A stretch of 64,000 nt of DNA from Cetorhinus maximus (taxonomy: Eukaryota): positions 96,224,001 through 96,288,000 of the forward strand of contig NC_135884.1 in the NCBI RefSeq assembly GCF_964194155.1, written 5' to 3'. Position numbers and translations under genes: made by a program. Under the pieces are notes generated by a model. It saw only the letters and a list, made by a program, of their open reading frames with translations. It was not told where the DNA came from and made no database searches. Each line of letters begins with the position of its first letter. The first letter of the stretch is position 1. This document shows positions 17,528 through 59,549 of this stretch, piece by piece.

Positions 17528-18382
<855 letters not shown>

Positions 18383-19793: not shown

Positions 19794-21583
19794 ACAAGGA
19801 ATGTTCCACATACCCCATAAAGAGAAAGGCATAGCTGGGGCCCATGCGGGTACCCATAGCAACACATTTACTTTGGAGGAAGTGAGAGGAGTTTAAGGAG
19901 AAATTGTTCAATTGTTCAGTGTAATATTCCTTGTTCCAGTCCTACTCCGGCCCCCTCCCACAACACATTCTCCGGTACATTGATGATTAATTCGGTGCTG
20001 CTTCATGTTCTCGTCTCGACCTGGAAACATTTATTAATTTTACTTCCAATTTCCACCCCTCCATCATTTCCACATGGTCCACCTCTGACACTTCCCTTCC
20101 CTTCCTTGACCTCTTTGTCTCAATTTCTGGTGATAGACTGTCCACCAATATCCATTACAAGCCTACCAACTCCCACAGCTACCTCGACTACAGCTCCTCA
20201 CACCCCGCTTCCTGTAAGGACTCCATCCCATTCTCTCAGTTCCTTCGCCTCCATCGCATCTGTTCTGATGATGCCACTTTCAAAAACAGTTCCTCTGAAA
20301 TGTCCTCCTTCTTCCTTAACCGTGGTTTTCCACCCACGGTGGTTGACAGGGCCCTCAACCATGTCTGGCCCATCAGCCGCGCATCCGCCCTCACACCTTC
20401 CTCTCCCTCCCAGAAACATGATAGGGTCCCCCTTGTCCTCACTTATCACCCCACCAGCCTCCGCATTCAAAGGATCATCCTCCGTCATTTCCGCCAACTT
20501 CAGCATGATGCCACCTCCATACACATCTTCCCTTCACCCCCCCCCCCCACCCCCCGGCGGCATTCCATAGGGATCGTTCCCTCCATGACACCCTGGTCCA
20601 CTCCTCCATCACCCCCTACACCTCCACTCCCTCCCACGGCACCTTCCCATGCAACCGCAGAAGATGCAACACCTGCCCCTTCACTTTCCCTCTCCTCACC
20701 GTCCAAGGGCCCAAACACTCATTTCAAGTGAAACAGCATTTCACTTGCACTTCCCTCAACTTAGTCTACTGCATTCGTTGCTCCCAAAGTGGTTTCCTCT
20801 ACATTGGAGAGACCAAACGCAGACTGGGTGACCGCTTTGCAGAACACCTTTGGTCTGTCTGCAAGCATTACCCAGACCTCTGTGTCGCTTGCAATTTCAA
20901 CACTCCACCCTGCTCTCATGCCCACATGTCCATCCTTGGCTTGCTGCATTGTTCCAGTGAAGCTCAATGCAAACTGGAGGGACAGCACCTCATCTTCCGA
21001 CTAGGCACTTTACAGCCTTCCGGACTAAATATTGAGTTCAACAATTTCAGATCATGAACTCTCTCCTCCATCCCCACCCCCTTTCCGATTTTCCCCCTCC
21101 TTTTTGTTTTTTCCAATAATTTATATAGATTTTTCTTTTCCCACCTATTTCCATTATTTTTAAATGTATTTCTATCCATTGTTTTATCTCTACCTTTTAG
21201 CCTATTTGGAAACCTTCACCCCACCCCACCCCCACTAGGGCTATCTGTACCTTGCTTGTCCTGCTTTCTACCCTTAATTAGCACATTCCTTTAGATAATA
21301 TCACCACCTTCAACACCTCTTTGCCCTTTTGTCTGTGACATCTTTTGGTTATCTCCACCTGTCACTGGCCCTCTATCCAGCTCTTCTTGTCCCACCACCA
21401 CCCCCTCTTAAACCAGCTTATATTTCAACCCTTTTTTATTTTTCCTTAGTTCGTTTGAAGAGTCATGCGGACTCGTAATGTTAACTGTGCTCCTTTCCAC
21501 AGATGCTGCCAGACCTGCTGAGTTTTTCCAGGTATTTTTGTGTTTTTTTTTGGAGTTCTAGCATCCGCAGTTTTTTTGCTTTT
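19794..21583 (+). mobile_element. Penelope-like element A (5'-truncated, with an inverted 5' segment 19794-19921)
   Basis: Frameshifted RT C-terminus and GIY-YIG endonuclease (LVYCIRCSQSGFLYIGET, ORF 20728-21057). The first ~125 bp is the reverse complement of RT sequence seen at 29360-29480. Confidence 0.88.
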
Positions 21584-22181
21584 ATCAATGTAAACTCTGT
21601 TAGACATCAAAACAGGTGAGAAATTCTATGGGACACAGGATCTGGCAGAAAAGGAGAAAGCAGCAAATATCCAGAGTGAAAACAGGGAACCAAACTCCAA
21701 ACAGAGAGTGCAGTCCTGGACTCGCCCAAACGGTGGGGGTGAAACGTGTTGCAGACGCTCAGACACACGCTGACTCCTCAGCAAATGTTGGGAAATTGCT
21801 GTCGTTGAGAAATCTTTTTGGGCCGTGTTGTGAGTGAAGCGGGGAAGGGGCGGGTCGGTCCGGGCCGAATGCACACGGGGCACCGAAGTGATACGGCGGC
21901 TGAAAGTTTGAATTGCACCCGGCTCCTTCACTCACAACACGACCCAAAAAGATTTCTCAATGACAGCAATTTCCCAACATTTCCTGTGGAGTCAGCGTGT
22001 GTTTGAGCGTCTGCAACACGTCCCACCCCCACAGTGTGGGGTGGTCCAGGATGCACTCTCTGTTTGAAGGTTGATTTGTTGTTTTCACTCTGGATATATG
22101 CTGGTTTCTCATTGCTCTGCCAGATCCTGTGTCCCAGAGAGTTTCTCACCTGTTTTGATGTCTAACAGAGTTTATATTGAT
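21584..22181. repeat. Inverted repeat (arms 21584-21839 and 21926-22181) enclosing an orphan MT promoter fragment, unit A
   Basis: The arms are imperfect reverse complements. The 86-bp loop holds GGGGCGGG, TGCACAC (21870) and TGCACCC (21914) as in the MT promoters, but no TATA box or exon. Confidence 0.9.
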
Positions 22182-22344
22182 GCTGTGCTTTCAATGGGCA
22201 GCACGTTTCAAAGCCCCAGTGTTTGGAGAGATGAGAATTGATCAGTTTTGTCTGATCAGTGTCAGGAACCAGGAGTACAGGTGACATTTGGACCGTGTGC
22301 ACCGGCCTGTCGGTTTAAGGGCTGAATTTCTGCACACGACCACA

Positions 22345-24960
22345 ACAACTTGTGTAATAACAATTTATATAGCGCTTTTAGTATCATAAAAATTTCCGAA
22401 GACACTTCACCGGAAATTTATAAGGCAACAATTGTGAAAACTAGGGTGTGATTTTTAAATGATGTGAGTTGAGGGCGAGGGCAGGGGTATAAGTGAGATG
22501 TATTTTAGCCTGGGGGGCTGGTGGAACGGGTTGAAGCTGCAGAGGCATCTGATGAGATAAGTCAGAGAGTGCGATGGAGGCCTTTCGGCCCACTCATTCT
22601 GAGACAAAGAAGTCAGTGAGCTCCTGGCACTGATTGTTGGAGGTGAGGGTGGAGTCGGCAAGGTGGAGGGGTTTAGAAATATGGTTTGTGGTACAGAACA
22701 GGTGTTAGGGGTTAACTTTACATTCCGGGGTGATCCTGGATTAGTGAACAATTTTAACAGACTCATTATTGTGTAATTTCCTGCAGTAATATCAGGAGGT
22801 GGATGGGTAAACCAATTACCCACCTGTCCATTCAGCTCCCTGTGCCTTCAGCTTAAAGGAACAGAGGTGAGGTCCTTACCGGGTGGAATAGCTAAATTGA
22901 GAGAGAGTCATGGATTTATTGGGACTGGGGCATCAATGGTGCAGGTGAGAGTGCAGGTGAGCAAATCAGCCCCTGAAGCATTATCATGGCGAGTGGAGGG
23001 CCAAAGGCTGGAGAGTTGGAATTTTGAAATTTCAGCCTTAAATAAATTGTTGGATATATTTTTTCAGAGGCAGATACAGCAGAAAGTAAAGGCGGTGAAC
23101 AGCGAAGGGGGACGTGGGTGGTGAGTGGGCCCAACAAGTGATCAGATATGGCCTTGGATAGATGCGGTGGACGTAGTGAGTCCCTGTGAGATGGTGAGGT
23201 CAAGGTGGTGTCTGTGAACATGGATTGAGGATTTGACATGGAGGGAGAGATTATGGGAGGATCAGAGGTCAGTGAACTGAGAGGAGAGAACATGATGAAT
23301 CAAGATGGAGGTTGAAATCACTGCAGACCCTCGGTGAAGTGGCTGAGAGAGAAAATTAGTGAATTCTATGGACAGAGTAAAGCAATATCATAAATAAAGG
23401 GTTAGATTCAATTTCTGCAGTCCTGCCACATCCAGTCATTACTGGTCTGGGGCTATATAACAGCTAACAGGAGCATGTGGCTGCATAAATGACCCCATGC
23501 TCAAAGATTGGGGAGCCCAGCACATGACTGCAAAAGACAAGGCTGAACCATGTTCAACCATCTTCAACCAGAGGTACTGAGTGGATAATATATCTCAGCT
23601 TCCTCCTGCAGTCCCCAGTATCACAGAAGCCAATTTGATTTGGTCCATGTGGTATGACAAAATGGTTAAAGACACTGAATACAGTAAAGTCTATGACATC
23701 CCAGCAGCAGCACTAAGACTTGTGCTCCACATCCAATCACAACCCTAGCCATGCTGTTACACAGGATCACAGGGAATAGGAACATGGGAAATCGGAGCAG
23801 GAGTTGGCTATTCAACCCATTGAGCTTGCAATGACATTCAAACAGATCCTGGCTGATCATCTACCTCAACGTCATTTTCCCCACTATCTCCATCTCCCCT
23901 GATGTCATTAGTCTCCAGAAATATATTGATTTCTGTCTTGAACATGCTCAATGACTGAGCTTCCACAACCCCCTGGGGTAGAGAATTCCAAAGATTCCCC
24001 ACCCTCTGAGTTATGAAATACCTTCTCGTCTCAGTGTTAAATGGCCTGTCCCTTATTCTGAGACAGTGTCCCCTGGATCTAGATTCACCAGCCAGGGTAA
24101 ACATCCTGTCCACATCGTCCCTGTTACACCTGGTAAGAATTTTGTAAGTTTTAATGAGATCACTTCTCATTCTTCAAAACTCTAAAGAATACAGGCCCAG
24201 TTTCCTCAATCTCTCCACATAACACAATCCTGCCATCCCAGGGATCAGTCTGGTGAACCTCCATTGCATTCTCTCTAAGGCAAGTATATCCTTCCATAGA
24301 TAAGGAGACCAAAACTGGGCACAATACTCCAGGTGAGGTCTCACCAAGGCCCGGTACAATTGCAGCAAGACATCTTTACTCCTCTACACAAATCCCCTTG
24401 AGATGAAGGCCAACATACCATTTGCCTTCCTAATTATTTGCTGCACCTGCATGCCAGCTTTTAGAAACTCATGCACAAGGACACCCAGGTTTATTTGGAC
24501 ACCAAACTTCCCAACCTCTCACCATATAAGGAATGCTCAATTACAGTACAGCTACAATACTGGCATCGAGCTGGTCATATAGATAACTTTCCAAGAATGG
24601 CCAATACGCTAAAAGCAGGAAAAATCCCATCCTGCCAAGCACTGTGCCAGCAGCCTGCTCTTCATTATGAACAAAGTGATGGGAGGTGACATGGGCAGTG
24701 CTATCATGGGTCCTTATTCACCAATCAGCTGCTCACTGATGTTCAGGTTGGGTTTCACAGGGCAAATCCTGGAACTCCCTCCCTAACAGCACTGTGGGTG
24801 TTCCTACACCATACTGACTGCACATGTTCAAGAAGGCAGTTCACCACCACCTTCTCAAGGGCAATTAGAGATGGGCAACAAATGTTGGTATTGTCAGCGG
24901 TGCCCACATCTCTTGGACGAATAAGAAATGAAATATCTTGGTGTGTTGTCTAAGATGAAT
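22345..24960. mobile_element. Decayed LINE fragments (L2/CR1 types) forming the inter-promoter spacer, repeated in every unit
   Basis: Minus-strand CR1 ORFs 23838-24368 (LYRALVRPHLEYCAQFWSP) plus older fragments. The same block is at 31880-34500 and 41350-43970, and inverted at 56390-58950. Confidence 0.7.
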
Positions 24961-25284
24961 TTTATTGGGAGAAAAAATACACTAAGGCTTATCCTTGTAT
25001 TCAGGATGATATTGGGATGGTGAGCAGTGTTGAGGGAGCAGGGGACAGGCGGATGATGTGTAATCTGGAGCAGCCAGATGTGGCGGTGAGTGGTGAAACC
25101 AATTGTCTGTCATACCCATTGCTGAGATCAGGGTGGATCCGGGTGAATGGAGAGGACCCTATGTCCACCTTGTAGACTGAAGTCTGATTTTAGTCAATTT
25201 GGAAATATTTACAAAAACAGAGGACCCGATTGAAATTGGTGTCACTGAGAAATCTTTTTGGGCCGTGTTGTGAGTGAAGGAGAC

Positions 25285-25405
25285 GGGTGCAATTCAAACT
25301 TTCAGGTGCTGAAACACATCGGTGCCCCGTGTGCATTCAGCCCGGACAGACCCGCCCCTTCCCCGCTTCTGCAGCCGGTTCCCCAACGATCACAAGCCCA
25401 TAAAA
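25285..25405 (+). promoter_or_regulatory. MT copy 2 proximal promoter
   Basis: Antisense MRE cores GGGTGCA 25285-25291 and GTGTGCA 25329-25335. GC box 25351-25358. CATAAAA 25399-25405. Confidence 0.85.
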
Positions 25406-25487
25406 CTCGGCTCCGATTCAGCAAACGGCACAAGATTGAAAAGCGCTGATTGGGTGACGGCTCGAAACTGCAGAAGAAGTTCCTGAA

Positions 25488-26343
<856 letters not shown>

Positions 26344-27479
26344 ACAACAGGCCCTTCAGGGACAATAGATGAAATATTGTCCATATGTATTGTATTCCAC
26401 AAGCTGCATGTCCTCGGTGTCTATATCCTGATGAATTGTGTGTTTACATAAAGTAATGAAAAGTGTCTGAATATTGTTGAAATTCTGATTTTTGGATCAA
26501 GAGTTAAATAAATTTTCAGTATTTGAATTCCAGTCATAAGTCTTATTCTGTTACTTAAAGGTGTGATATTACTAATAACAGCACAAGATCTAGGAAATGA
26601 GTTGAGTCTAACTTTGCCATTAAGACCCATGGCATAACATAAGTCACATTAGCATCTGTCACAGTCTGGCCAATGAGGTTAAACAATGTGATGAAGGACC
26701 AGTGTCAGAAATGGTGGAGTGAATGAATGAATGGCAGTTCTGCTGACCCTCTTATCCATGAGTGTGGTAGCATGCTACTGTCAAATATACCAGAAATTGG
26801 TTGTAAGCCAGTCACATCTGCCTGTTAACTGTGCATCCTAAAGTTAATTTTAAAATATTCTTTGGAAGTTTTGGCAGAAATGCAGACTCCTTCAGAGATT
26901 TGTGAACTTGCTTCCCCAGGTCTTGCTGTTTCTGCACTCCCTCGAAAGTTGTATCATTTATTTCACATTGTATCTCCACATTCTTTGTTTAAAGTCTATC
27001 AAATCACATTTCCGTGCCTTAAATTTCATCTGTCAGATATCTGATCATTTTACCACTCTGTTTCCTTGAGCCTGTAATTATCCTCCTCATTGTTGACTAC
27101 TACACCCCCTCTAGACCCTTTAAGGTTTCTAACTTGAGGAAGGCCAAACCTTTCATTCTTGTTATCCAATTTTCTCCTATCCAATCTTAACTTCTCTGTT
27201 ACTGCTTCATTGAGAACATCATTCTCTACAGAGAACAAGGTGGCAAAAATACACCTCGTACCTTAACCATGTCCTCTGCCTCTAGACAAAGGTTAGCTTT
27301 TCAGTTCCTAATCAGCCCCACATTCTGCATTGACTACTCTTTCATCACTGATGTGTTTAATGGGGAAAATCCACATTCTGGGGAACTGCCATCATAATGC
27401 ACCCAAGGGCTGAAAGATATGGAAAAATCTCCCAGATGTGTGCACCGGAATATTTCCGACATGAAACGTAAATGTATCT

Positions 27480-28340
27480 TTTATCTGGGAGGGAGAAAGG
27501 GACACTTCGTACCTGGAAGCAGTCACACCCTTAGACTAGGGTCTTCTGATTTGGTCAGTGGCAGGGAGAGGAGGGTGTGACTGCGAATGAGGCAGCTATA
27601 GGGACCCAGAAGGTAAAAGTGGTGGAGATTCACCTTTGCAATTGTCCAACAGGTTCGATGTTCTTGCAGCCTGTATGGATGAAAGTGGTGGCTGCAGTGT
27701 GGATGAGCAAACTGACCATGGCACCATGGTCCAGGAAGACATTCATGCAGGGGGAGTTAATGGGAATGTAGTGGTAATTGGAGATAGTATAGTCAGGGGT
27801 TTGACACAGTTCTCCCCAGCCCAGACTCGGAGTTCATGCAGCTGTGTTGCCTGCCTGGTGTCAGGGTTTGGGCCACTGCTCTGGGCTGGGAAGGAACTAG
27901 CAGTTAGAGGGGTAGGTTGCAGTGGTCATGGTTTCTGCTGAGGGAGTATTGAGCAGCTAGGAGCTAAATTAAAAAGCAGAACCTGAAAGGTACTAATCTC
28001 TGTATTACTACCTAAGCCACGAGCAAATTGACATAGGTCAAATCAGATTAGGGAGTGAAAAGCATGGCTGAAAGTTTGAGAAAAGGGTTTTGATTCATGT
28101 GGCACTGGCACCAGTACTGCAGAAGGTGGGAGCTGTACCATTGGAATAGTTTTCACCTGAACCATGCTGGGACAAGTGTTCTGGTGAGTCGTATAACTAG
28201 GGCAGTGGAGAGGGCTTTAAACGAAGTAGTGGGGGCAAGGAATCAAATTTGGGAAGATGTGATAATATAAGTGATATGTGATAATATGTGATATGATAAA
28301 TGCACGTGGCATTTGTAATGAAAGAGATGAAGAAATATTA
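27480..28340 (+). mobile_element. Decayed CR1 ORF1 (SGNH esterase-like) fragment; copies at ~37010 and ~46460
   Basis: ORF 27636-27941 has LSNRFDVL and VVVIGDSIVRG (GDS motif), typical of CR1 ORF1. Frameshifted downstream. Confidence 0.7.
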
Positions 28341-28419
28341 ATAAATATGCATGATCTGATAGCCAATACAGAGTCATAGCTCCTGGATGTCGAGGGACCT
28401 GTATATTCATATTGACATT

Positions 28420-28827
28420 TCACAGAATCACAGAATTCTTACAGTGTAGAAGGAGGCCATTCAGCCCATCGGGTCTGCACCGGCTCCCTGAGCAATTTAA
28501 CTTAGTGCATATCTCCTGCCTTTTCCCTGTAACCCTGCACATTGTTTATATTTAAATAATCATCTAATGCCCTCCTGAATGCCTCAATTGAACCTGCCTC
28601 CACCACACTTCCAGGCAGTGCATTCCATCCCCAACTACTCACTGTGTGAAAAAGGTTTTTCTCATTTCGCATTTGCTTCTTTTGCAAAACACTAAAACTG
28701 TGCTCTCTGGTTCTCGATCTGTTTCCAAGCAGGAACAGTTTCTCTCTAACTACTCTGTCTACACCCCTCATTATTTTGAAAATTTCTACCAAGTCTCCTC
28801 TCAGCCTTCTTCTCTCCAAGGAAAACA
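28420..28827 (-). mobile_element. CR1 3' end truncated by a Penelope insertion (copy at ~37953-38360)
   Basis: LFSLERRRLRGDLVEIFKIM...WNALPGSVVEA and a CACAGAAT tail. Same fragment as 47522-47929. Confidence 0.85.
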
Positions 28828-31118
28828 GACTGACCTCTACCTCGCGGAGGCTGAGCATCAACTCGCAGACACTTCCTCCTACCTCTCCCTGGACCATGAC
28901 CCCACCACTGAACACCAAGCCATTGTTTCCAGGACTGTCACCGACCTCATCTCCCCTGGAGATCTTCCTCCCACAGCTTCCAACCTGATAGTCGCCCAAC
29001 CTCGGACGGCCCGCTTCTACCTCCTACCCAAAATCCACAAACAGAACTGTCCCGGCAGACCGATCGTGTCAGCCTATTCCTGCCCCACGGAACTCATTTC
29101 ACGTTATCTTGACTCCCTTCTCTCTCCCCTTGTCCAGTCCCTGCCCACCTACATCCGTGATTCCTCTGACACCTTACGTCACATCAACAATTTCCAGTTC
29201 CCTGGTTCCAACCGCTTCCTCTTCACCATGGATGTCCAATCCCTCTACACCTCCATCCCCCACCAGGATGGTCTGAGGGCCTTTAGCTTATTCCTTGAAC
29301 AGAGGCCCGAACAATCCCCATCCACCACTACTCTCCTCCGTCTGGCTGAACTTGTTTTCACACTGAACAATTTCTCCTTTAACTCCTCTCACATCCTCCA
29401 AATAAAAGGTGTGGCTATGGGTACCCGCATGGGCCCCAGCTATGCCTGTCCCTTTATGGGGTATGTGGAACATTCCTTGTTCCAGACCTACTCCGGCCCC
29501 CTCCCACAACACTTTCTCTGGTACATCGATGATTACTTCGGTGCTGCTTCATGCTCTCGTCGGGACCTGGAAAAATTTATTGATTTTGCTTCCAATCTCC
29601 ACTCCTCCATCATTTTCACATGGTCCATCTCTGACACTTCCCTTCCCTTCCTTGACCTCTCTGTCTCAATTTCTGGTGATAGACTGTCCACCAATATCCA
29701 TTACAAGCCTTCCAACTCCCACAGCTACCTCGACTACAGCTCCTCACACCCCGCTTCCTGTAAAGACTCCATCCCATTCTCTCAGTTCCTTCGCCTCCGT
29801 CGCATCTGTTCTGATGATGCAACCTTCAAAAACAATTCCTCTGACATGTCATCCTTCTTCCTTAACCGAGTTTTTCCACCCACGGTCGTTGACAGGGCCC
29901 TCAACCGTGTCTGGCCCATCTCCCGCGCATCCTCCCTCACGCCTTCTCCTCCTTCCCAGAAACATGATAGGGTCCCCCTTGTCCTCACTTATCACCCCAC
30001 CAGCCTCCGCATTCAAAGGATCATCCTCCGCCATTTCCGCCAACTCCAGCATGATGCCACCACCAAACACATCTTACCTTCACCCCCCCTGGCGGCATTC
30101 CGTAGGTATCGTTCCCTCCGGAACACCCTGGTCCACTCCTCCATCACCCCCTCCTTCTCAATCCCCACCTATGGCACCTCTCCATGCCCACGCAGAAGAT
30201 GCAACACCTGCCCCTTCACTTCCTCTCTCCTCACCATCCAAGGGCCCAAACACTCCTTTCAAGTGAAACAGCATTTCACTTGCACTTCCCTCAACTTAGT
30301 CTACTGCATTCGTTGCTCCCAATGCGGTTTCCTCTACATTGGAGAGACCAAACGCAGACTGGGTGACCGCTTTGCAGAACACCTTTGGTCTGTCCGCAAG
30401 CATTACCCAGACCTCCCTGTCGCTTGCCATTTCAACACTCCACCCTGCTCTCATGCCCACATGTCCATCCTTGGCTTGCTGCATTGTTCCAGTGAAGCTC
30501 AACGCAAGCTGGAGGGACAGCACCTCATCTTCCGACTAGGCACTTTACAGCCTTCCGGACTAAATATTGAGTTCAACAATTTCAGATCATGAACTCTCTC
30601 CTCCATCCCCACCCCCTTTCCGATTTTCCCCCTCCTTTTTGTTTTTTCCAATAATTTATATAGATTTTTCTTTTCCCACCTATTTCCATTATTTTTAAAT
30701 GTATTTCTATCCATTGTTTTATCTCTACCATTTAGCCTATTTGGATACCTTCACCCCACCCCACCCCCACTAGGGCTATCTGTACCTTGCTTGTCCTGCT
30801 TTCTACCCTTAATTAGCACATTCCTTTAGATAATATCACCACCTTCAACACCTCTTTGCCCTTTTGTCTGTGACATCTTTTGGTTATCTCCACCTATCAC
30901 TGGCCCTCTATCCAGCTCTTCTTGTCCCACCACCACCCCCTCTTAAACCAGCTTATATTTCAACCCTTTTTTATTTTTCCTTAGTTCGTTTGAAGAGTCA
31001 TGCGGACTCGTAATGTTAACTGTGCTCCTTTCCACAGATGCTGCCAGACCTGCTGAGTTTTTCCAGGTATTTTTGTGTTTTTTTTTGGAGTTCTAGCATC
31101 CGCAGTTTTTTTGCTTTT
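28828..31118 (+). mobile_element. Penelope-like element, chimaeric, with uninterrupted RT + GIY-YIG frame to the stop at 30592
   Basis: FYLLPKIHK, GRPIVS, MDVQSLYTSIP, QIKGVAMGTRMGP, WYIDD, linker CPRRRCNTC (Neptune-like), VYCIRCSQC..LYIGET, GLN. 5'-truncated at 28828. Confidence 0.93.
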
Positions 31119-31717
31119 ATCAATGTAAACTCTGTTAGACATCAAAACAGGTGAGAAATTCTATGGGACACAGGATCTGGCAGAAAAGGAGAAAGCAGCA
31201 AATATCCAGAGTGAAAACAGGGAATCAAACTCCAAACAGAGAGTGCAGTCCTGGACTCGCCCGCACGGTGGGGGTGAAACGTGTTGCAGACGCTCAGACA
31301 CACGCTGACTCCGCAGCAAATGTTGGGAAATTGCTGTCGTTGAGAAATCTTTTTGGGCCGTGTTGTGAGTGAAGCGGGGAAGGGGCGGGTCGGTCCGGGC
31401 CGAATGCACACGGGGCACCGAAGTGATACGGCGGCTGAAAGTTTGAATTGCACCCGGCTCCTTCACTCACAACACGACCCAAAAAGATTTCTCAATGACA
31501 GCAATTTCCCAACATTTCCTGTGGAGTCAGCGTGTGTTTGAGCGTCTGCAACACGTTTCACCCCCACAGTGTGGGGGAGTCCAGAACTGCACTCTCTGTT
31601 TGAAGGTTGATTTGTTGTTTTCACTCTGGATATATGCTGGTTTCTCATTGCTCTGCCAGATCCTGTGTCCCAGAGAGTTTCTCACCTGTTTTGATGTCTA
31701 ACAGAGTTTATATTGAT
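31119..31717. repeat. Inverted repeat enclosing an orphan MT promoter fragment, unit B
   Basis: Near-identical to 21584-22181. Confidence 0.9.
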
Positions 31718-34700: not shown

Positions 34701-34818
34701 ACCTTGTAGACTGAAATCTGATTTTAGTCAATCTGGAAATATTTACAAAAACAGAGGACCCGATTGAAATTGGTGTCACTGAGAAATCTTTTTGGGCCGT
34801 GTTGTGAGTGAAGAAGCC

Positions 34819-34939
34819 GGGTGCAATTCAAACTTTCAGCCACTGAATCACTTCGGTGCCCCGTGTGCATTCAGCCCGGACGAACCCGCCCCTTCCCCGC
34901 TTCTGCAGCCGGTTCCCCACCGATCACAAGCCCATAAAA
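34819..34939 (+). promoter_or_regulatory. MT copy 3 proximal promoter
   Basis: MRE cores 34819-34825 and 34863-34869, a GC box, and CATAAAA 34933-34939. Confidence 0.85.
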
Positions 34940-35021
34940 CTCGGCTCCGATTCAGCAAACGGCACAAGATCGAGAAGTGCTGATTGGGTGACGGCTCGAA
35001 GCTGAAGAAGAAGTTCCTGAA

Positions 35022-35875
<854 letters not shown>

Positions 35876-38360: not shown

Positions 38361-40653
38361 GACTGACCTCTACCTCGCGGAGGCTGAGCATCAACTCGCA
38401 GACACTTCCTCCTACCTCCCCCTGGACCATGACCCCACCACTGAACACCAAGCCATTGTTTCCAGGACTGTCACTGACCTCATCTCCTCTGGAGATCTTC
38501 CTCCCACCGCTTCCAACCTGATAGTCGCCCAACCTCAGATGGTCCGCTTCTACTTCCTACCCAAAATCCACAAACAGAACTGTCCTGGCAGACCGATCGT
38601 GTCAGCCTATTCCTGCCCCATGGAACTTATTTCTCGTTATCTTGACTCCCTTCTCTCTCCCCTTGTCCAGTCCCTTCCCACCTACATCCGTGATTTCTCT
38701 GACACCTTACGTCACATCAACAATTTCCAGTTCCCTGGTTCCAACCCCTTCCTCTTCACCATGGACGTCCAATCCCTCTACGCCTCCATCCCCCACCAGG
38801 ATGGTCTGAGGGCCTTTAGCTTATTCCTTGAACAGAGGCCCGAACAATCCCCATCCACCACTACTCTCCTCCATCTGGCTGAACTTGTTCTCACACTGAA
38901 CAATTTCTCCTTTAACTCCTCTCACTTCCTCCAAATAAAAGGTGTGGCTATGGGTACCCGCATGGGCGCCAGCTATGCCTGTCTCTTTATGGGGTATGTG
39001 GAACATTCCTTGTTCCAGTCCTACTCCAGCCCCCTCCCACAACACTTTCGATGATTACTTCAGTGCTGCTTCATGCTCTCGTTGGGACCTGGAAAAATTT
39101 ATTAATTTTGCTTCCAATCTCCACCCCTCCATCATTTTCACATGGTCCATCTCTGACACTTCCCTTCCCTTCCTTGACCTCTCTGTCTCAATTTCTGGTG
39201 ATAGACTGTCCACCAATATCCATTACAAGCCTTCCAACTCCCACAGCTACCTCGACTACAGCTCCTCACACCCCGCTTCCTGTAAGGACTCCATCCCATT
39301 CTCTCAGTTCCGTCGCCTCCGTCACATCTGTTCTGATGATGCTACCTTCAAAAACAATTCCTCTGACATGTCATCCTTCTTCCTTAACCGAGGTTTTCCA
39401 CCCACAGTCATTGAAAGGGCCCTCAACCGGGTCCGGCCCATCTCCCGCGCATCCGCCCTCATGCCTTCTCCTCCCTCCCAGAAACATGATAGGGTCCCCC
39501 TTGTCCTCACTTATCACCCCACCAGCCTCCGCATTCAAAGGATCATGCTCCGCCATTTCCGCCAACTCCAGCATGATGCCACCACCAAACACATCTTACC
39601 TTCACCCACCCGGCGGCATTCCGTAGGGATCGTTCCCTCCGGAACACCCTGGTCCACTCCTCCATCACCCCCTCCTTCTCAATCCCCACCTATGGCACCT
39701 CTCCATGCCCACGCAGAAGATGCAACACCTGCCCCTTCACTTCCTCTCTCCTCACCATCCAAGGGCCCAAACACTCCTTTCAAGTGAAACAGCATTTCAC
39801 TTGCACTTCCCTCAACTTAGTCTACTGCATTCGTTGCTCCCAATGCGGTTTCCTCTACATTGGAGAGACCAAACGCAGACTGGGTGACCGCTTTGCAGAA
39901 CACCTTTGGTCTGTCCGCAAGCATTACCCAGACCTCCCTGTCGCTTGCCATTTCAACACTCCACCCTGCTCTCATGCCCACATGTCCATCCTTGGCTTGC
40001 TGCATTGTTCCAGTGAAGCTCAACGCAAACTGGAGGGACAGCACCTCATCTTCCGACTAGGCACTTTTCAGACTTCCGGACTTAATATTGAGTTCAACAA
40101 TTTCAGATCATGAACTCTCTCCTCCATCCCCACCCTCTGTCAGATTTTCCCCCTCCTTTTTGTTTTTTCCAATAATTTATATAGATTTTTCTTTTCCCAC
40201 CTATTTCCATTATTTTTAAATGTATTTCTATCCATTGTTTTATCTCTACCTTTTAGCCTATTTGGATACCTTCACCCCACCCCACCCCCACTAGGGCTAT
40301 CTGTACCTTGCTTGTCCTGCTTTCTACCCTTAATTAGCACATTCCTTTAGATAATATCACCACCTCAAACATCTCTTTGCCCTTTTGTCTATGACATCTT
40401 TTGGTTATCTCCACCTATCACTGGCCCTCTATCCAGCTCTTCTTGTCCCACCAACCCCCCTCCCCCCCCACCCCCACTCTTATCCCAGCTTATATTTCAA
40501 CCCTATTCTATTTTTCCTTAGTTCGGTTGAAGAGTCATGCGGACTCGAAATGTTAACTGTGCTCCTTTCCACAGATGCGGCCAGACCTGCTGAGTTTTTC
40601 CAGGTACTTTAGTTTTTTTTTGGAGTTCTAGCATCCGCAGTTTTTTTGCTTTT
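38361..40653 (+). mobile_element. Penelope-like element, chimaeric, frameshifted
   Basis: RT and GIY-YIG are split over ORFs 38179-39054, 38942-39787 and 39784-40113. A deletion at ~39048 damages the YIDD motif. Confidence 0.92.
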
Positions 40654-41182
40654 ATCAATGTAAACTCTGTTAAACATCAAAACAGGTGAGAAATTCAATG
40701 GGACACAGGATCTGGCAGAAAATGAGAAAGCAGCAAATATCCAGAGTGAAAACAGGGAATCAAACTCCAAACAGAGAGTGCAGTCCTGGACTCGCCCGCA
40801 CGGTGGGGGTGAAATCTTTTTGGGCCGTGTTGTGAGTGAAGCGGGGAAGGGGCGGGTCTGTCCGGCTGAATGCACACGGGGCACCGAAGTGATACAGCGG
40901 CGGAAAGTTTCAATTGCACCCGGCTCCTTCACTCACAACACGACTCAAAAAGATTTCTCAATGACAGCAATTTCCCAACATTTCCTGTGGAGTCAGCGTG
41001 TGTTTGAGCGTCTGCAACACGTTTCACCCCCACAGTGTGGGGTGGTCCAGGATGCACTCTCTGTTTGAAGGTTGATTTGCTGTTTTCACTCTGGATATTT
41101 GCTGCTTTCTCATTGCTCTGCCAGATCCTGTGTCCCAGAGAGTTTCTCACCTGTTTTGATGTCTAACAGAGTTTATATTGAT
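40654..41182. repeat. Inverted repeat enclosing an orphan MT promoter fragment, unit C (left arm with ~70-bp deletion)
   Basis: As 21584-22181, but GGGGGTGAAA is joined directly to TCTTTTTGGGCC at ~40814. Confidence 0.88.
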
Positions 41183-44100
41183 GTAGTGCTTTCATTGGGC
41201 AGCACGTTTCAAAGCCCCAGTGTTTGGAGAGATGAGAATTGATCAGTTTTGTCTGATCAGTGTCAGGAACCAGGAGTACAGGTGACATTTGGACCGTGTG
41301 CACCAGCCTGTCGGTTTAAAGGCTGAATTTCTGCACACGACAACAACAACTTGTGTAATAACAATTTATATAGCGCTTTTAGTATCATAAAAATTTCCGA
41401 AGACACTTCACCGGAAATTTATAAGGCAACAATTGTGAAAACTAGGGTGTGATTTTTAAATGATGTGAGTTGAGGGCGAGGGCAGGGGGATAAGTGAGAT
41501 GTATTTTAGCCTGGGGGGCTGGTGGAACGGGTTGAAGCTGCAGAGGCATCTGATGAGATAAGTCAGAGAGTGCGATGGAGGCCTTTCGGCCCACTCATTC
41601 TGAGACAAAAAAGTCAGTGAGCTCCTGGCACTGATTGTTGGAGGTGAGGGTGGAGTCGGCAAGGTGGAGGGGTTTAGAAATATGGTTTGTGGTACAGAAC
41701 AGGTGTTAGGGGTTAACTTTACATTCCGGGGTGATCCTGGAGTAGTGAACAGTTTTAACAGACTCATTATTGTGTAATTTCCTGCAGCAATATCAGGAGG
41801 TGAATGGGTAAACCAGTTACCCACCTGTCCATTCAGCTCCCTGTGTCTTCAGCTTAAAGGAACAGAGGTGAGGTCCTTACCGGGTGGAATAGCTAAATTG
41901 AGAGAGAGTCATTGATTTATTGGGACTAGGGGATCAATGGTGCAGGTGAGAGTGCAGGTGAGCAAATCAGCCCCTGAAGCATTATCATGGCGAGTGGAGG
42001 GCCAAAGGCTGGAGAGTTGGAATTTTGAAATTGCAGCTGTAAATAAATTGTTGGAAAGATTTTTTCAGAGGCAGATACAGCAGAAAGTAAAGATGGGGAA
42101 CAGGGAAGGGGAACGTGGGTGGGGCGTGGGCACAGCAAGTGATCAGATATGGCCTTGGTTTGATGTGGTGGAAGTAGTGAGTCCCTGTGAGATGGTGAGG
42201 TCAAAGTGCTGTCTGTGAACATGGATTGAGGATTTGACATGGAGGGAAAGATTATGGGAGGATCAGAGGTCAGTGAACTGAGAGGAGAGAACATGATGAA
42301 TCAAGAAGGAGGTTGAATTCACTGCAGACCCTCGGTGAAGTGGCTGAGAGAGAAAATTAGTGAATTCTATGGACAGAGTAAAGCAATGTCATAAATAATG
42401 GGTCAGATTCAATTTCTGCAGTCCTGCCACATCCAGTCATTACTGGTCTGGGGCTATTTAACAGCTAACAGGAGCATGAGGCTGCATAAATGACCCCATG
42501 CTCAAAGATTCGGGAGCCCAGCACATGACTGCAAAAGACAAGGCTGAACCATGTTCAACCATCTTCAACCAGAGGTACTGAGTGGATAATATATCTCAGC
42601 TTCCTCCTGCAGTCCCCAGTATCACAGAAGCCAATTTGAAGCCAACTTGATTTGGTCCATGTGGTATGACGAAATGGTTAATGACACTGAACACAGTAAA
42701 GTCTATGACATCCCAGCAGCAGCACTAAGACTTGTGCTCCACATCCAATCACAACCCTAGCCAAAATGTTACACAGGATCACAGGGTATAGGAACATGGG
42801 AAATCGGAGCAGGAGTTGGCTATTCAACCCATTGAGCCTGCACTGACATTAAAACAAATCCTGGCTGATCATCTACCTCAACGTCATTTTCCCCACTATC
42901 TCCATCTCCCCTGATGTCATTAGTCTCCAGAAATATATTGATTTCTGTCTTGAACATGCTCAATGACTGAGCTTCCAAAACCCCCTGGGGTAGAGAATTC
43001 CAAAGATTCACCACCCTCTGAGTTACGAAATACCTTCTCGTCTCAGTGTTAAATGGCCTGTCCCTTATTCTGAGACAGTGTCCCCTGGATCTAGATTCAC
43101 CAGCCAGGGTAAACATCCTATCCACATCGTCCCTGTTACACCTGGTAAGAATTTTGTAAGTTTTAATGAGATCACCTCTCATTCTACAAAACTCTAAAGA
43201 ATACAGGCCCAGTTTCCTCAATCTCTCCACATAACACAATCCTGCCATCCCAAGGATCAGTCTGGTGAACCTCCATTGCACTCTCTCTAAGGCAAGTATA
43301 TCCTTCCATAGATAAGGAGACCAAAACTGGGCACAATACTCCAGGTGAGGTCTCACCAAGGCCCGGTACAATTGCAGCAAGACATCTTTACTCCTCTACA
43401 CAAATCCCCTTGCGATGCATGCTAACATACCATTTGCCTTCCTAATTATTTGCTGCACCTGCATGCTAGCTTTTAGTAACTCATGCACAAGGATACCCAG
43501 GTTTATTTGGACACCAAATTTCCCAACCTCTCACCATATAAGGAATGCTCAGTTACAGTACAGCTACAATACTGGCATCGAGCTGGTCATGTAGATAACT
43601 TTCCAAGAATGGCCAATACACTAAAAGCAGGGAAAATCCCATCCTGCCAAGCACTGTGCCAGCAGCCTGCTTTGCATTATCAACGAAGTGATGGGAGGTG
43701 ACATGGACAGTGCTATCAGGGGTCACTTGTTCACCAAACAGCAGCTCACTGATGTTCAGGTTGGGTTTCACTCGGCAAATCCTGGAACTCCCTCCCTAAC
43801 AGCACTGTGGGTGTTCCTACACCACATGGACTGCATATGTTCAAGAAGGCAGTTCACCACCACCTTCTCAAGGGCAATTAGAGATGGGCAATAAATGTTG
43901 GCATTGTCAGCGGTGCCCACATCTCTTGGGCGAATAAGAAAGGAAATATCTTGGTGTGTGCTCTAAGATGAAGGTTATTGAGAGAAAAAATACACTAAGG
44001 CTTATTCTTGTATTCAGGATGATTTTGGGATGGTGAGCAGTGTTGAGGGAGCAGGGGAGAGGCGGATGATGCAGCCAGATGTGGCGGTGAGTGGTGAAAC

Positions 44101-44285
44101 CAATTGTCTGTCATACCCATTGCTGAAATCAGGGTGGATCCGGGTGAATGGAGAGGACCCTATGTCCACCTTGTAGACTGAAGTCTGATTTTAGTCAATC
44201 TGGAAATATTTACAAAAACAGAGGACCCGATTGAAATTGGTGTCACTGAGAAATCTTTTTGGGCCGTGTTGTGAGTGAAGGAGAC

Positions 44286-44406
44286 GGGTGCAATTCAAAC
44301 TTTCAGGTGCTGAAACACTTCGGTGCCCCGTGTGCATTCAGCCCGGACAGACCCGCCCCTTCCCCGCTTCTGCAGCCGGTTCCCCACCGATCACAAGCCC
44401 ATAAAA
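44286..44406 (+). promoter_or_regulatory. MT copy 4 proximal promoter
   Basis: MRE cores 44286-44292 and 44330-44336, a GC box, and CATAAAA 44400-44406. Confidence 0.85.
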
Positions 44407-44488
44407 CTCGGCTCCGATTCAGCAAACGGCACAAGATCGAGAAGCGCTGATTGGGTGGCGGCTCGAAACTAAAGAAAAAGTTCCTGAA

Positions 44489-45343
<855 letters not shown>

Positions 45344-47929
45344 ACAACAGGCCCTTCAGGCACAATAGATGAAATATTGTCCATATGTATTGTATTCCAT
45401 AAGCTGCATGTCCTCGGTGTCTATATCCTGATGAATTGTGTGTTTACATAAAGTAATGAAAAGTGTCTGAATATTGTTGAAATTCTGATTTTTGAATCAA
45501 GAGTTAAATAAATTTTCAGTATTTGAAGTCCAGTCATAAGTCTTATTCTGTTACTTAAAGGTGTGATATTACTAATAACAGCAGAAGATCTAGGAAATGA
45601 GTTGAGTCTAACTTTGCCATTAAGACCCATGGCATAACATAAGTTACATTAGCATTTGTCACAGTCTGGCCAATGAGGTTAAACAATGTGATGATGGACC
45701 AGTGTCAGAAATGGTGGAGTGAATGAATGAATGGCAGTTCTGTTGACCCTCTTATCCATGAGTGTGGCAGCATGCTACTGTCAAATATACCAGAAATTGG
45801 TTGTAAGCCAGTCACATCTGCCTGTTAACTGTGCATCCTAAAGTTAATTTTAAAATATTCTTTGGAAGTTTTGGCAGAAATTTGTGAACTTGCTTCCCCA
45901 GGTCTTGCTGTTTCTGCATTCCCTCTAAAGTTGTATCATTTATTTCTCATTGTATCTCCACATTCTTTGTTTAAAGTCTATCAAATCACATTTCCATGCC
46001 TTAAATTTCATCTGTCAGATATCTGATCATTTTACCACTCTGTTTCCTTGAGCCTGTAATTATCCTCCTCATTGTTGACTACTACATCCCCTCTAGACCC
46101 TTTAAGGTTTCTAACTTGAGGAAGGCCAAACCTTTCATTCTTGTTCTCCAATTTTCTCCTATCCAATCTTAACTTCTCCGTTGCTGCTACATTGAGAACA
46201 TCATTCTCTACAGAGAACAAGGTGGCAAAAATACACCTCGTACCTTAACCATGTCCTCTGCCTCCAGACAAAGGTTAGCTTTTCAGTTCCTAATCAGCCC
46301 CACATTCTGCATTGACTACTCTTTCATCACTGATGTGTTTAATGGGGAAAATCCACATTCTGGGGAACTGCCATCATAATGCACCCAAGGGCTGAAAGAT
46401 ATGGAAAAATCTCCCAGATGTGTGCACCGGAATATTTCCGACATGAAACGTAAATGTATCTTTTATCTGGGAGGGAGAAAGGGTCACTTTGTACCTGGAA
46501 GCAGTCACACCCTTAGACTAGGGTCTTCTGATTTGGTCAGTGGCAGGGAGAGGAGGGTGTGACTGCGAATGAGGCAGCTATGGGGACCCAGAAGGTAAAA
46601 GTGGTGGAGATTCACCTTTGCAATTGTCCAACAGGTTTGATATTTTTGCAGCCTGTATGGATGAAAGTGGTGGCTGCAGTGTGGATGAGCAAACTGACCA
46701 TGGCACCATTGTACAGGAAGACATTCATGCAGTGGGAGTTAATGGGAATGTAGTGGTAATTGGGGACAGTATAGTCAGGGGTTTGACACAGTTCTCCTCA
46801 GCCCAGACTCGGAGTTCATGCAGCTGTGTTGCCTGCCTGGTGTCAGGGTTTGGGCCACTGCTCTGGGCTGGGAAGGAACTAACAGTTAGAGGGGTAGGTT
46901 GCAGTGGTCATGGTTTCTGCTGAGGGAGTATTGAGCAGCTAGGAGCTAAATTAAAAAGCAGAACCTGAAAGGTACTAATCTCTGTATTACTACCTAAGCC
47001 ACGAGCAAATTGACATAGGTCAAATCAGATTAGGGAGTGAAAAGCATGGTTGAAAGTTTGAGAAAAGGGTTTTGATTCATGTGGCACTGGCACCAGTACT
47101 GCAGAAGGTGGGAGCTGTACCATTGGGACAGTTTTCACCTGAACCATGCTGGGACAAGTGTTCTGGTGAGTCGTATAACTAGGGCAGTGGAGAGGGCTTT
47201 AAACAAAGTAGTGGGGGCAAGGGATCAAATTTGGGAAGATGTGATAAATTTAATAGACAAGACAAGGCAGTAGAGCAAGATAATAACAAGGGAAATGATG
47301 ATCAGCACTTGGCAGGAAGGTACAGAATGTGCAAACCTAAGAGTGCACCAGCAGAGAAGGCTAGAGGTTTCAAAATAAAGAACTAAAGGCTCTGTATCTG
47401 AATGCACATGGCATTTGTAATGAAAGAGATGAAGAAATATTAATAAATATGCATGATCTGATAGCCAATACAGAGTCATAGCTCCTGGATGTCGAGGGAC
47501 CTGTATATTCACATTGACATTTCACAGAATCACAGAATTCTTACAGTGTAGAAGGAGGCCATTCAGCCCATCGGGTCTGCACCGGCTCTCTGAGCATTTT
47601 AACTTACTGCGTATCTCCTGCCTTTTCCCTGTAACCCTGCACATTGTTTATATTTAAATAATCATCTAATGCCCTCCTGAATGCCTCAATTGAACCTGCC
47701 TCCACCACACTTCCAGGCAGTGCATTCCATCCCCAACTACTCACTGTGTGAAAAAGGTTTTTCTCATTTCGCATTTGCTTCTTTTGCAAAACACTAAAAC
47801 TGTGCCCTCTGGTTCTCGATCTGTTTCCAAGCGGGAACAGTTTCTCTCTATCTACTCTGTCTACACCCCTCATTATTTTGAAAATTTCTACCAAGTCTCC
47901 TCTCAGCCTTCTTCTCTCCAAGGAAAACA

Positions 47930-50200
47930 GACTGACCTCTACCTCGCGGAGGCTGAGCGTCAACTCGCAGACACTTCCTCCTACCTCTCCCTGGACCATG
48001 ACCCCACCACTGAACACCAAGCCATTGTTTCCAGGACTGTCACTGACCTCATCTTCCCTGGAGATCTTCCTCCCACAGCTTCCAACCTGATAGTCGCCCA
48101 ACCTCGGATGGCCCGCTTCTACCTCCTACCCAAAATCCACAAACAGAACTGTCCCGGCAGACCGATCATGTCAGCCTTTTCCTGCCCCACGGAACTCATT
48201 TCTCATTATCTTGACTCCCTTCTCTCTCCCCTTGTCCAGTCCCTTCCCACCTACATCCGTGATTCCTCTGACACCTTACGTCACATCAACAATTTCCAGT
48301 TCCCTGGCCCCAACCCCTTCCTCTTCACCATGGACGTCCAATCCCTCTACACCTCCATCCCCCACCAGGATGGTCTGAGGGCCTTTAGCTTATTCCTTGA
48401 ACAGAGGCCCGAACAATCCCCATCCACCACTACACTCCTCCGTCTGGCTGAACTTGTTGTCACTGAACAATTTCTCCTTTAACTCCTCTCACATCCTCCA
48501 AATAAAAGGTGTGGCTATGGGTACCCGCATGGGCCCCAGCTATGCCTGTCTCTTTACGGGGTATGTGGAACATCCCTTGTTCCAGTGCTACTCCGGCCCC
48601 CTCCCACAACTCTTTCTCCAGTACATCGATGATTACTTCAGTGCTGATTCATGCTCTTGTTGGGACCTGGAAAAATTTATTAATTTTGCTTCCAATCTCC
48701 ACCCCTCCATCATTTTCACATGTCCATCTCTGACACTTCCCTTCCCTTCCTTGACCTCTCTGTCTCAATTTCTGGTGATAGACTGTCCACCAATATCCAT
48801 TACAAGCCTTCCAACTCCCACAGCTACCTCGACTACAGCTCCTCACACCCTGCTTCCTGTAAGGACTCCATCCCATTCTCTCAGTTCCTTCGCCTCCTTC
48901 GCATCTGTTCTGATGATGCTATCTTCATAAACAATTCCTCTGACATGCCCTTCTTCCTAAACTCAGGTTTTCCACCCACGGTCGTTGACAGGGCCCTCAA
49001 CCGTGTCCGGCCCAACTCCCGCGCATCCGCCCTCACACCTTCTCCTCCCTCCCAGAAACATGATAGGGTCCCCCTTGTCCTCACTTATCACCCCACCAGC
49101 CTCCGCATTCAAAGGATCATCCTCCGCCATTTCTGCCAACTCCAGCATGATGCCACCACCAAACACATCTTACCTTCACCCCCCCCAGCGGCATTCTGTA
49201 GGAATCATTCCCTCCGGGACACCCTGGTCCACTCCTCCATCACCCCCTACTCCTCAACCCCCACCTATGGCACTTCCCCATGCCCACGCAGATGATGCAA
49301 CACCTGCCCCTTCACTTCCTCTATCCTCACCGTCCAAGAGCCCAAACACTCCTTTCAAGTGAAGCAGCATTTCACTTACATTTCCCCTAACTTAGTCTAC
49401 TGTATTCGTTGCTCCCGATGCGGTCTCCTCTACATTGGAGAGACCAAACGCAAACTGGGCGACCATTTTGTAGAACACCTGCTGTATGTCCACAAGAAAG
49501 ACCCAGACCTCCCTGTCGCTTGCCATTTTAACACTCCACCCTGCTCTCTTGCCCACCTGTCTGTCCTTGGCTTGCTGCATTGTTCCAGTGAAGCTCAACG
49601 CAAACTGGAGGAACAGCACCTCATCTTCTGACTAGGCGCTTTACAGCCTTCCGGACTGAATATTGAATTCAACAACTTTAGACCTTGAACTCCCTCCTCC
49701 ATCCCCACCCCCTTTCCATTTCTTCCCCCTCCCTTTTGTTTTTTCCAATTATTTATATAGATTTTTCTTTTCCCACATATTTCCATTATTTTTAAATCTA
49801 TACCTGTAATGCCCTGTCAGTCTTTCCACCCCACCCCCACTAGAGCTATACCTTGAGTGTCCTGCCATCCATTCGTAATTAGCACATTCTCTTAGATAAT
49901 ATCACCACCTTTAACACCCCTTGTTTCCTTTGTCTGTGACATCTTTTGATTATCTGCTCCTATCACTGCTTGCTTGTCCCTACAACCACCCCACTCCAAC
50001 TTCTCTCCCCCCCACCACCCCACCTTAAACCAGCTTATATTTCACCCCTCTCCTAATTTTACCCAGTTCTGTTGAAGGGTCATGAGGACTCGAAACGTCA
50101 ACTCTTTTCTTCTCCGCCGATGCTGCCAGACCTGCTGAGATTTTCCAGGTAATTCTGTTTTTGTTTTGGATTTCCAGCATCCGCAGTAGTTTTTGTTTTT
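47930..50200 (+). mobile_element. Penelope-like element B inserted in CR1
   Basis: Frameshifted RT (QYIDD) and GIY-YIG (VYCIRCSRCGLLYIGET). CR1 sequence continues on both sides. Confidence 0.92.
50065..50103 (+). ncRNA. Minimal type-I hammerhead-ribozyme-like motif in the Penelope 3' UTR
   Basis: AGTT-CTGTTGA-A-GGGTC(ATGAG)GACTC-GAAAC-GTC-AACT gives helix I, a core with an A6U deviation from CUGANGA, a helix II hairpin, GAAA, a palindromic ACGT helix III and a GUC cleavage triplet. Confidence 0.6.
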
Positions 50201-55016: not shown

Positions 55017-55861
<845 letters not shown>

Positions 55862-55943
55862 TTCAGGAACTTCTTCTTCAGCTTCGAGCCGTCACCCAAT
55901 CAGCGCTTCTCGATCTTGTGATGTTTGCTGAATCGGAGCCGAG

Positions 55944-56069
55944 TTTTACGGGCTTGTGATCGGTGGGGAACCGGTTGCAGAAGCGGGGAAGGGGCGGGTC
56001 TGTCCGGGCTGAATGCACACGGGGCACCGAAGTGATTCAGCGGCGGAAAGTCTGAATTGCACCCGGCTC
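55944..56069 (-). promoter_or_regulatory. MT copy 5 proximal promoter (TATA-like box changed to CGTAAAA)
   Basis: TGCACAC 56014-56020, TGCACCC 56058-56064, a GC box, and TTTTACG at 55944-55950. Confidence 0.82.
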
Positions 56070-58987: not shown

Positions 58988-59467
58988 GGGTGCACACGGT
59001 CCAAATGTCACCTGTACTCCTGGTTCCTGACACTGATCAGACAAAACTGATCAATTCTCATCTCTCCAAAGACTGGGGCTTTGAAACGTGCTGCCCATTG
59101 GAAGCACAACATCAATGTAAACTCTGTTAGACATCAAAACAGGTGAGAAATCCCTGGGACACAGGATCTGGCAGAGCAATGAGAAACCAGCAAATATCCA
59201 AAACAGAGAGTGCAGTCCTGGATTCGCCCGCACTGTGGGGGTGAAACGTGTTGCAGACGCTCAGACACACGCTGACTCCACAGGAAATGTTGGGAAATTG
59301 CTGTCATTGAGAAATCTTTTTGGGCCGTGTTGTGAGTGAAGGAGCCGGGTGCAATTCAAACTTTCAGCCGCTGAATCACTTCGGTGCCCCGTGTGCATTC
59401 AGCCCGGACAGACCCGCCCCTTCCCCGCTTCTGCAGCCGGTTCCCCACCGATCACAAGCCCATAAAA
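58988..59467 (+). promoter_or_regulatory. MT copy 6 promoter with distal and proximal MREs
   Basis: Overlapping double core GGGTGCACAC 58988-58997, GAGTGCA 59208-59214, GGGTGCA 59347-59353, GTGTGCA 59391-59397, a GC box, and CATAAAA 59461-59467. Confidence 0.85.
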
Positions 59468-59549
59468 CTCGGCTCCGATTCAGCAAACGGCACAAGATCG
59501 AGAAGTGCTGATTGGGTGACGGCTCGAAGCTGAAGAAAAAGTTCCTGAA

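Follow-up and report, generated by a model that had tools for sequence, protein, structure and literature searches.

The question raised by this locus is how a segment of about 9.5 kb carrying a metallothionein (MT) gene came to be repeated in tandem. The analyzed window is a stretch of 64,000 nucleotides (G000:C6:96224001-96288000) of a 4.0-Gb genome, probably that of a cartilaginous fish judging by its repeats and MT genes; the analysis was extended by 130 kb on the downstream side and by 20 kb on the upstream side, and coordinates marked 'ext' carry the window numbering on into the adjoining stretches L001-L013. Self-alignment of the window revealed three tandem units that are 96.5-97.2% identical, with a spacing of 9,533 and 9,569 bp, and one three-exon MT gene is located in every unit (Table 1). 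The units are bounded by four copies of a single retroelement family, termed A (19794-21583 in total), I1, I2 and B. Units 1-3 have 81 derived sites in common when 18 paralogous segments are used as outgroups. The divergence among the three units amounts to 2.3-2.9%, compared to 6.0-8.8% between unit 2 and the flanks of other MT copies. The palindrome that follows three of the elements, previously described as a hairpin, is a remnant from the middle of an old inverted duplication in which MT genes lie head to head.

Table 1. Positions of the elements, genes and junctions at the MT locus, in window numbering.
Feature	Position	Strand	Remarks
MT gene of an older head-to-head pair	17528..18382	-	outside the tandem units
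Element A, inverted 5' segment	19794..19910	-	117 bp; twin-priming-like; overlap of ~16 bp at the inversion point
Element A	19919..21583	+	a-subfamily; 5'-truncated; supplied the 3' part of the hybrids
Palindrome	21584..22181	.	600 bp; carries 138-bp MT-promoter copy with MRE-like sites
MT gene, unit 1	25488..26343	+	3 exons, 68 aa, intact
CR1 fragment	28299..28827	-	B-type 5' flank within unit 1
Hybrid I1	28828..31118	+	B-derived 28828-30224, A-derived 30268-31118; 5'-truncated
B-to-A switch interval	30225..30267	+	between linker zinc finger and GIY-YIG motif; without indel
Palindrome copy, unit 2	31119..31717	.	
MT gene, unit 2	35022..35875	+	intact; one residue unlike units 1 and 3
Hybrid I2	38361..40653	+	switch as in I1; frame broken by 11-bp deletion
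Palindrome copy, unit 3	40654..41182	.	68-bp deletion
MT gene, unit 3	44489..45343	+	intact
Element B	47930..50200	+	b-subfamily; 5'-truncated; in CR1; donor of the hybrids' 5' part
Older head-to-head MT pair	55017..60405	.	genes at 55861 (minus) and 59550 (plus)
Second duplication, start	63292..64000	+	71 bp of b-type 3' end precede MT-upstream DNA; extends as far as L001:6438

The MT genes consist of three exons separated by GT-AG introns, and their promoters contain two TGCRCNC sites, which we take to be matches to the MRE consensus. The MT product matches the Pfam family Metallothio (PF00131) with an E value of 1.8e-12, above the cut-off. The tandem units belong to a wider cluster of 16 complete MT genes, which extends over approximately 135 kb from 17528 to ext 151589. 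All 16 genes have open frames and nine of them encode an identical protein; the intron-2 donor of one gene is broken, and the promoter of one gene was lost to another insertion of the family of A and B. Besides the 16 cluster genes, a genome search with exon 3 picked up a single orphan exon, a diverged MT and a match located on a different contig. BBS2 is the neighbor of the MT genes in mammals; its sole match was found 6.4 Mb away on the same contig, which is uninformative for the MT cluster.

The elements at the unit borders encode a reverse transcriptase (RT) and, at the C terminus, a GIY-YIG endonuclease on a single frame. The Pfam matches (RVT_1, E 2.9e-5; GIY-YIG, E 2.2e-4) both fall just under the curated cut-offs, and the best ESM Atlas cluster (0.97) holds RT/GIY-YIG families. 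In longer dispersed copies, the sequence reaches further 5' and includes a stretch that encodes a DKG motif, located before the RT core. Both 5' truncation and inverted 5' segments are found, which are features of Penelope-like (EN+) elements according to the accessible text of PMC8557442. The same text describes a Cys-rich CX2-5CxxC linker between RT and endonuclease for Neptune and the absence of such a finger from strict Penelope/Poseidon. The translations of A, I1 and I2 contain a CX4CxxC motif ahead of the GIY-YIG domain, so that the finger-free linker of strict Penelope/Poseidon was not found in these three copies. This motif points to the Neptune group as the probable placement of the family, and the earlier naming of A and B as Penelope would hold in the broad, Penelope-like (EN+) sense and not in the strict one. 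For the background density, sequence was sampled at round coordinates in 39 stretches, each 10 kb long, and these contained 19 loci of the family (1.9% of 390 kb, or one per 20.5 kb). An enrichment in the MT cluster was considered and rejected, as approximately six independent insertions in 135 kb equal this genome background.

Elements A and B are real, independent and co-oriented insertions of sister subfamilies (a and b), located approximately 9.5 kb apart and flanking one MT gene. The inverted segment of A abuts a CR1 fragment that lies upstream of the MT gene on the minus strand, and the element replaces 1,907 bp that are still present in an intact head-to-head MT pair (L004:1223-9846). 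The insertion of B was accompanied by the loss of 2-3 bp of target and is without TSD; its empty site can be seen in a paralogue in which the CR1 fragment is unbroken (L002:4632-4639). Eleven of the 12 long dispersed copies inspected extend further 5' in the element sequence than B, so the 5' end of B represents a copy-specific truncation.

The two internal copies combine the ends of these insertions. Their 5' junction is that of B, base for base, across the 40 bp of CR1 flank compared, and their 3' junction into the palindrome is that of A; neither a junction nor a TSD of their own was found at the ends of I1 and I2. The sequences between these ends were assigned with a reference set in which 90 loci, minus five window copies and six duplicates, left 79 dispersed copies (50 a-type and 29 b-type) and in which 110 substitution columns separate the subfamilies. 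Up to position 30224, the b state is present at 30 of 31 diagnostic columns in I1 and at 31 of 31 in I2. From 30285 onward, the a state is present at 75 (I1) and 73 (I2) of 79 columns. The presumed donors are uniform, with a at 16/16 and 75/79 columns in A and b at 30/31 and 75/79 in B. The leftmost allele at the switch that is private to A, I1 and I2 is found at 30268, and the interval narrows from 43 to 11 bp (30257-30267) when column 30256, which is partly polymorphic, is taken as reliable. For I2, the switch within the overlap of A and B is supported by a Fisher test (p = 8e-17). Alleles that are rare among dispersed copies link the 5' part to B (six in I1, I2 and B, four in I2 and B, two in I1 and B, all at or before 30076), and 18 of the 19 alleles common to A, I1 and I2 lie at or to the right of 30268. 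Phylogenetic trees are split in the same manner, with ((I1,I2),B) for the 5' part (41 sequences, support 0.967/0.949) and ((I1,A),I2) for the 3' part (82 sequences, support 0.887/1.0). Not one of the 79 dispersed copies has a b-type 5' part followed by an a-type 3' part, and this set contains the 28 dispersed copies that best match a hybrid query. The single switch, with private alleles from B on its left and from A on its right, identifies I1 and I2 as in-register hybrids. It had been proposed from the sequence alone that these copies carry the 5' junction of B and the endonuclease, 3' UTR and 3' flank of A, with a switch near 30200-30290; all coordinates and features given in this original prediction were present, and both the junction comparison and the diagnostic columns agree with it.

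Several observations on the hybrids remain to be added. The nineteenth allele common to A, I1 and I2 is located at 29511, left of the switch; it counts against a single switch and homoplasy is assumed. The open frame of I1 comprises 587 codons and covers RT, linker finger and GIY-YIG. Its length was rejected as significant because a frame of at least 580 codons is found in 13 of the 33 copies that span it, and I1 is without a 5' end. The distance between B and the 5' part of the hybrids is 4.2-4.4%, compared to a minimum of 4.0% and a median of 4.75% for unrelated b copies. As B is hardly nearer to the hybrids than unrelated b copies are, the identity of the donor copy rests on the junction and on 6-12 shared alleles. 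The same distance suggests that the exchange took place soon after the insertion of B.

Taken together, it is very probable that the two Penelope-like copies A and B exchanged in register at 30225-30267 and thereby duplicated the MT gene between them, and that the third unit arose later by a unit-to-unit event. A homology-directed exchange joined the 5' part of B to the 3' part of A and produced the order A-MT-hybrid-MT-B. This exchange was probably a meiotic unequal crossing-over (NAHR) soon after B had inserted, when the 760 bp of shared RT sequence would have been only a few percent diverged. The elements would have acted as passive homology, and their own enzymes would be unnecessary. Neither a reciprocal deletion product nor a single-unit haplotype was seen in the 194 kb of assembly covered.

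Instead of a meiotic crossover, template switching during replication (BIR/MMBIR) or the excision and re-integration of a circle could have formed the same hybrid from A and B, and we consider this a minor but real possibility. The switch interval is short and the partners were diverged, and for Alu pairs template switching or end joining has been argued to yield the same full-length hybrids (accessible text of PMC6071635); crossover and replicative template switch leave the same sequence product here. Nevertheless, the shared RT sequence of approximately 760 bp, with identical tracts of up to 82 bp today, greatly exceeds the length of an Alu, and the hybrid shows a single junction, without an indel or an additional switch. 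An RNA route, in which a read-through transcript of A-MT-B was reverse-transcribed with its introns and recombined back, is highly improbable. Even though Penelope-like elements are described in the available part of PMC3846280 as mobilizing intron-containing host genes between terminal repeats, such a route would leave a new site and a new TSD, and the junctions of the hybrids are inherited, with the sole new join in register inside the open frame. The transcript would also have to cross the poly(A) site of the MT gene and the 600-bp palindrome. Because the mobilization described in that source keeps introns, intron retention in the MT copies does not exclude an RNA route and was rejected as proof of a DNA route. 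For retrotransposition in trans, a new site, element ends and a new TSD were looked for; a tandem position and inherited junctions were found instead. That I1 and I2 belong to a naturally recombinant subfamily inserted independently, or that the tandem units are an assembly artefact, is just as hard to sustain, since mosaic copies do occur (L037 has an internal b patch, in which 13 of the 17 columns from 29296 to 30190 are in the b state) but the full pattern is absent from the 79 dispersed copies, the hybrids carry junctions and private alleles of A and B, the units differ from each other with indels of their own, and a contig of run X1 crosses a junction specific to units 1 and 2.

This contig shows no difference from the assembly, and its sample is possibly the assembly's own. 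For a comparison across individuals and species, contigs from four public runs, one belonging to organism A and three to organism B, were aligned to 25200-31360, and the longest listed piece measured 403 bp. Among the contigs listed, none bridges 28827/28828, the switch or 31118/31119; the pieces are short and the element is swamped by dispersed copies.

The exchange between A and B accounts for the first additional 9.5-kb unit. I1 and I2 have an identical breakpoint and share nine private alleles in their B-derived part, which indicates that one hybrid existed and was then copied. Separate element-to-element exchanges for I1 and I2 were rejected on these grounds, and the proposal that recombination between Penelope elements made the units thus holds for the first extra unit and is overstated for the third. 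The hybrid would have gained its nine private mutations before an ordinary unequal crossover of two 9.5-kb units generated the third one. Upstream of the MT gene, unit 2 is nearer to unit 3 (2.2%) than to unit 1 (2.9%), and a 12-bp deletion is common to units 2 and 3. Unit 2 is nearer to unit 1 both in the gene (1.5% compared to 2.6% for unit 3) and downstream of it (1.7% compared to 2.5%), where a 120-bp deletion is common to units 1 and 2. A unit that is unit-3-like upstream and unit-1-like in and after the gene fits an unequal crossover between units, which would have been resolved just upstream of the MT gene, near its promoter and after ~34660. The raw site counts are 26 for the pair of units 1 and 2, 16 for units 2 and 3 and five for units 1 and 3; nine of the 26 lie inside a misaligned deletion and were treated as one event. 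A test of the second crossover yielded 14:4 versus 3:8 (p = 0.018), counts that take in one indel whose state is mixed among the outgroups, as well as three neighboring sites that probably go back to a single event. Sites in conflict with this crossover number four and three on its two sides, and the five sites above group units 1 and 3. Its position near the MT promoter, as read from these sites, is only indicative, and the signal is modest. Between 30562 and 31118, A differs from I1 by 0.54% and from I2 by 4.0%, so an added conversion tract is needed; a later tract of ~30562-31634 may have copied the 3' end of A and the palindrome onto unit 2.

A second exchange within the element family was detected at 63292 and is independent of the exchange between A and B. 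It produced a tandem duplication of 2.3 kb without an MT gene inside. The second hybrid (L001:727-1674) takes its 5' inversion junction from a downstream a-type insertion and its 3' junction from an upstream b-type insertion, of which 71 bp are left. This hybrid is b-type from column 30190 onward, and the downstream a-type copy has a b patch at 30190-30292, so this crossover can be placed only to 30190-30329. The 3' junctions of element A and of the b-type end at 63292 overlap at one 8-bp site, and the two were for this reason considered as opposite ends of a single insertion; this was not adopted, as their subfamilies differ and the 5' junction of A is its own. A far-reaching reading of the two a-by-b exchanges within 45 kb, both near the RT/endonuclease boundary, is that the family is an unusually active recombination substrate reshaping the MT array, with exchanges perhaps started by the endonuclease and feeding dosage selection on 16 MT copies whose number still varies between individuals. 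We regard this reading as rather unlikely.

The remaining part of the cluster was shaped by other events. The 138-bp metal-response-element repeat is present as the proximal promoter of the MT genes and, inverted, in the palindrome. Four cluster junctions run through the full repeat and four more through part of it, and the events behind these junctions need not be independent. The head-to-head MT pair at 55017..60405, joined through a copy of the repeat at 59294-59431, is not a product of the exchange between A and B. Judging from flanks that are 6-9% apart, the remaining MT copies of the cluster are older than units 1-3, and they are mostly inverted. The exchange between A and B gave rise to one MT copy directly and to one indirectly, that is two of the 16 complete genes. 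The original prediction that it drove the amplification of a host stress gene is therefore limited to these two, the others being older and mostly inverted.

Metal-exposure biomarker work often assumes a single MT gene, and an array of 16 nearly identical copies bears on such biomarkers. Given a density of roughly one family locus in every 20 kb, exchanges of this kind should be common in the genome, and a-by-b hybrids with borrowed junctions provide a simple means of counting them. The mechanism itself is textbook and not new; Penelope-like elements as its substrate are a new example, a base-resolved pair that seeded the duplication of a host gene, a role that has been described chiefly for pairs of Alu or LINE copies. 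In the mostly open-access literature searched, no report of a duplication by recombination between Penelope-like elements was found, nor anything on MT copy number in sharks. The recombination route with Penelope-like elements is not addressed in the accessible text of PMC7643557 and PMC6278893.

Exchange between co-oriented copies of a transposable element resulting in a duplication is an established general model (PMC8232201, as far as its accessible text goes). Growth of an array in two steps, in which repeats seed the first duplication and units then misalign, is described in the available portion of 10.64898/2026.10.01.755871 and resembles the present case; in contrast to that account, the repeats that seeded the array are known in the present case and its breakpoint is resolved to 11-43 bp, and no evidence for selection on copy number emerged. 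Ectopic recombination between transposable element copies in a Penelope-bearing genome is likewise seen in the Drosophila virilis group, but in the accessible parts of that study (PMC6278893) recombination involves the DAIBAM MITE and gives rise to inversions, and the role suggested for Penelope is only that of an indirect activator. In Adineta vaga, Penelope-like elements also add copies to a host multigene family with introns kept; according to the available text (PMC3846280), retrotransposition in trans places the gene at a new site, marked by an 8-bp TSD, whereas the copies described here arose by tandem recombination without a new junction. A close likeness is to Alu/Alu and LINE-LINE NAHR, in which co-oriented repeats also leave a full-length, in-register hybrid at the duplication junction (accessible text of PMC6071635 and PMC8232201). 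The present case differs from these in its Penelope-like substrate and in being an old event, the units now being 2-3% apart, after which the array expanded and underwent conversion.

The array comprises 16 complete and nearly identical metallothionein (MT) genes that extend over approximately 135 kb. Their exons are 96-100% identical whereas the flanks are 6-9% divergent, and this contrast in the compared sequences suggests that either conversion or strong purifying selection has acted on the array. Head-to-head MT junctions pass through a 138-bp repeat that contains two sites resembling metal-response elements (MREs) and is present in two copies of opposed orientation per unit. Rearrangements in the MT cluster may have used this repeat as their principal substrate.

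Features of the MT cluster and related loci (L001-L012, stretches of the same contig outside the window; ext, window numbering continued into them)
Feature	Location
MT array	window 17528 to L009:7589 (ext 151589)
138-bp repeat	window 59294-59431; L006:7034-7171; L008:2388-2525; L009:738-875
Second duplication	window 63292-64000 + L001:1-6438
8-bp insertion site	window 21584-21591; 63363-63371
Inverted-repeat insertion	L003:8558-L004:1220
570-bp-repeat-bounded stretches	L002:9223-L003:6694; L006:8442-L007:7250
Minisatellite	window 53839-54474
Minisatellite paralogue	L002:784-1076
MT copy, altered donor	L001:8717-9573
Diverged MT gene	L012:3393-3912
Orphan MT exon 3	L010:8316-8536
Exon 3 match, another contig	G000:C5:133352889-133353060
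Depth comparison	window 25400-26400

A second duplication of 2.3 kb does not include a gene. It arose by exchange between one a-type copy and one b-type copy of the Penelope-like family to which element A belongs. In paralogous DNA, an identical 8-bp site received the a-type element A on one strand and a b-type copy on the other, and this common site hints at a target preference; AT forms the first bases in 28 of 38 dispersed 3' junctions. One dispersed a-type copy (L037) carries b alleles in 13 of the 17 diagnostic columns of the RT region, a stretch that represents either a conversion patch or a natural mosaic. An inverted-repeat insertion of the same family was located approximately 55 bp ahead of the start codon of one MT gene, where it separates this gene from its own TATA box and MRE-like sites.

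Two related stretches of 7.5-8.8 kb, which end in 570-bp direct repeats, were found at the equivalent place downstream of two minus-strand MT genes; they represent a putative LTR-type element duplicated along with the adjoining MT gene. A minisatellite with a 29-bp period (22 copies, 97% matches) has a shorter paralogue. In one MT copy the intron 2 donor reads AT rather than GT, and this copy is probably non-functional. A diverged gene with approximately 72% exon 3 protein identity is located 26 kb past the array, and an orphan exon 3 was also identified. A 95% identical match on another contig starts exactly at the exon 3 start and is possibly a processed copy.

Contigs from a second organism (runs X5, X9 and X12) covered the MT gene at several times the depth seen over nearby flanks. 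Even though contig depth does not equal copy number, this hints that the organism likewise contains many MT copies.
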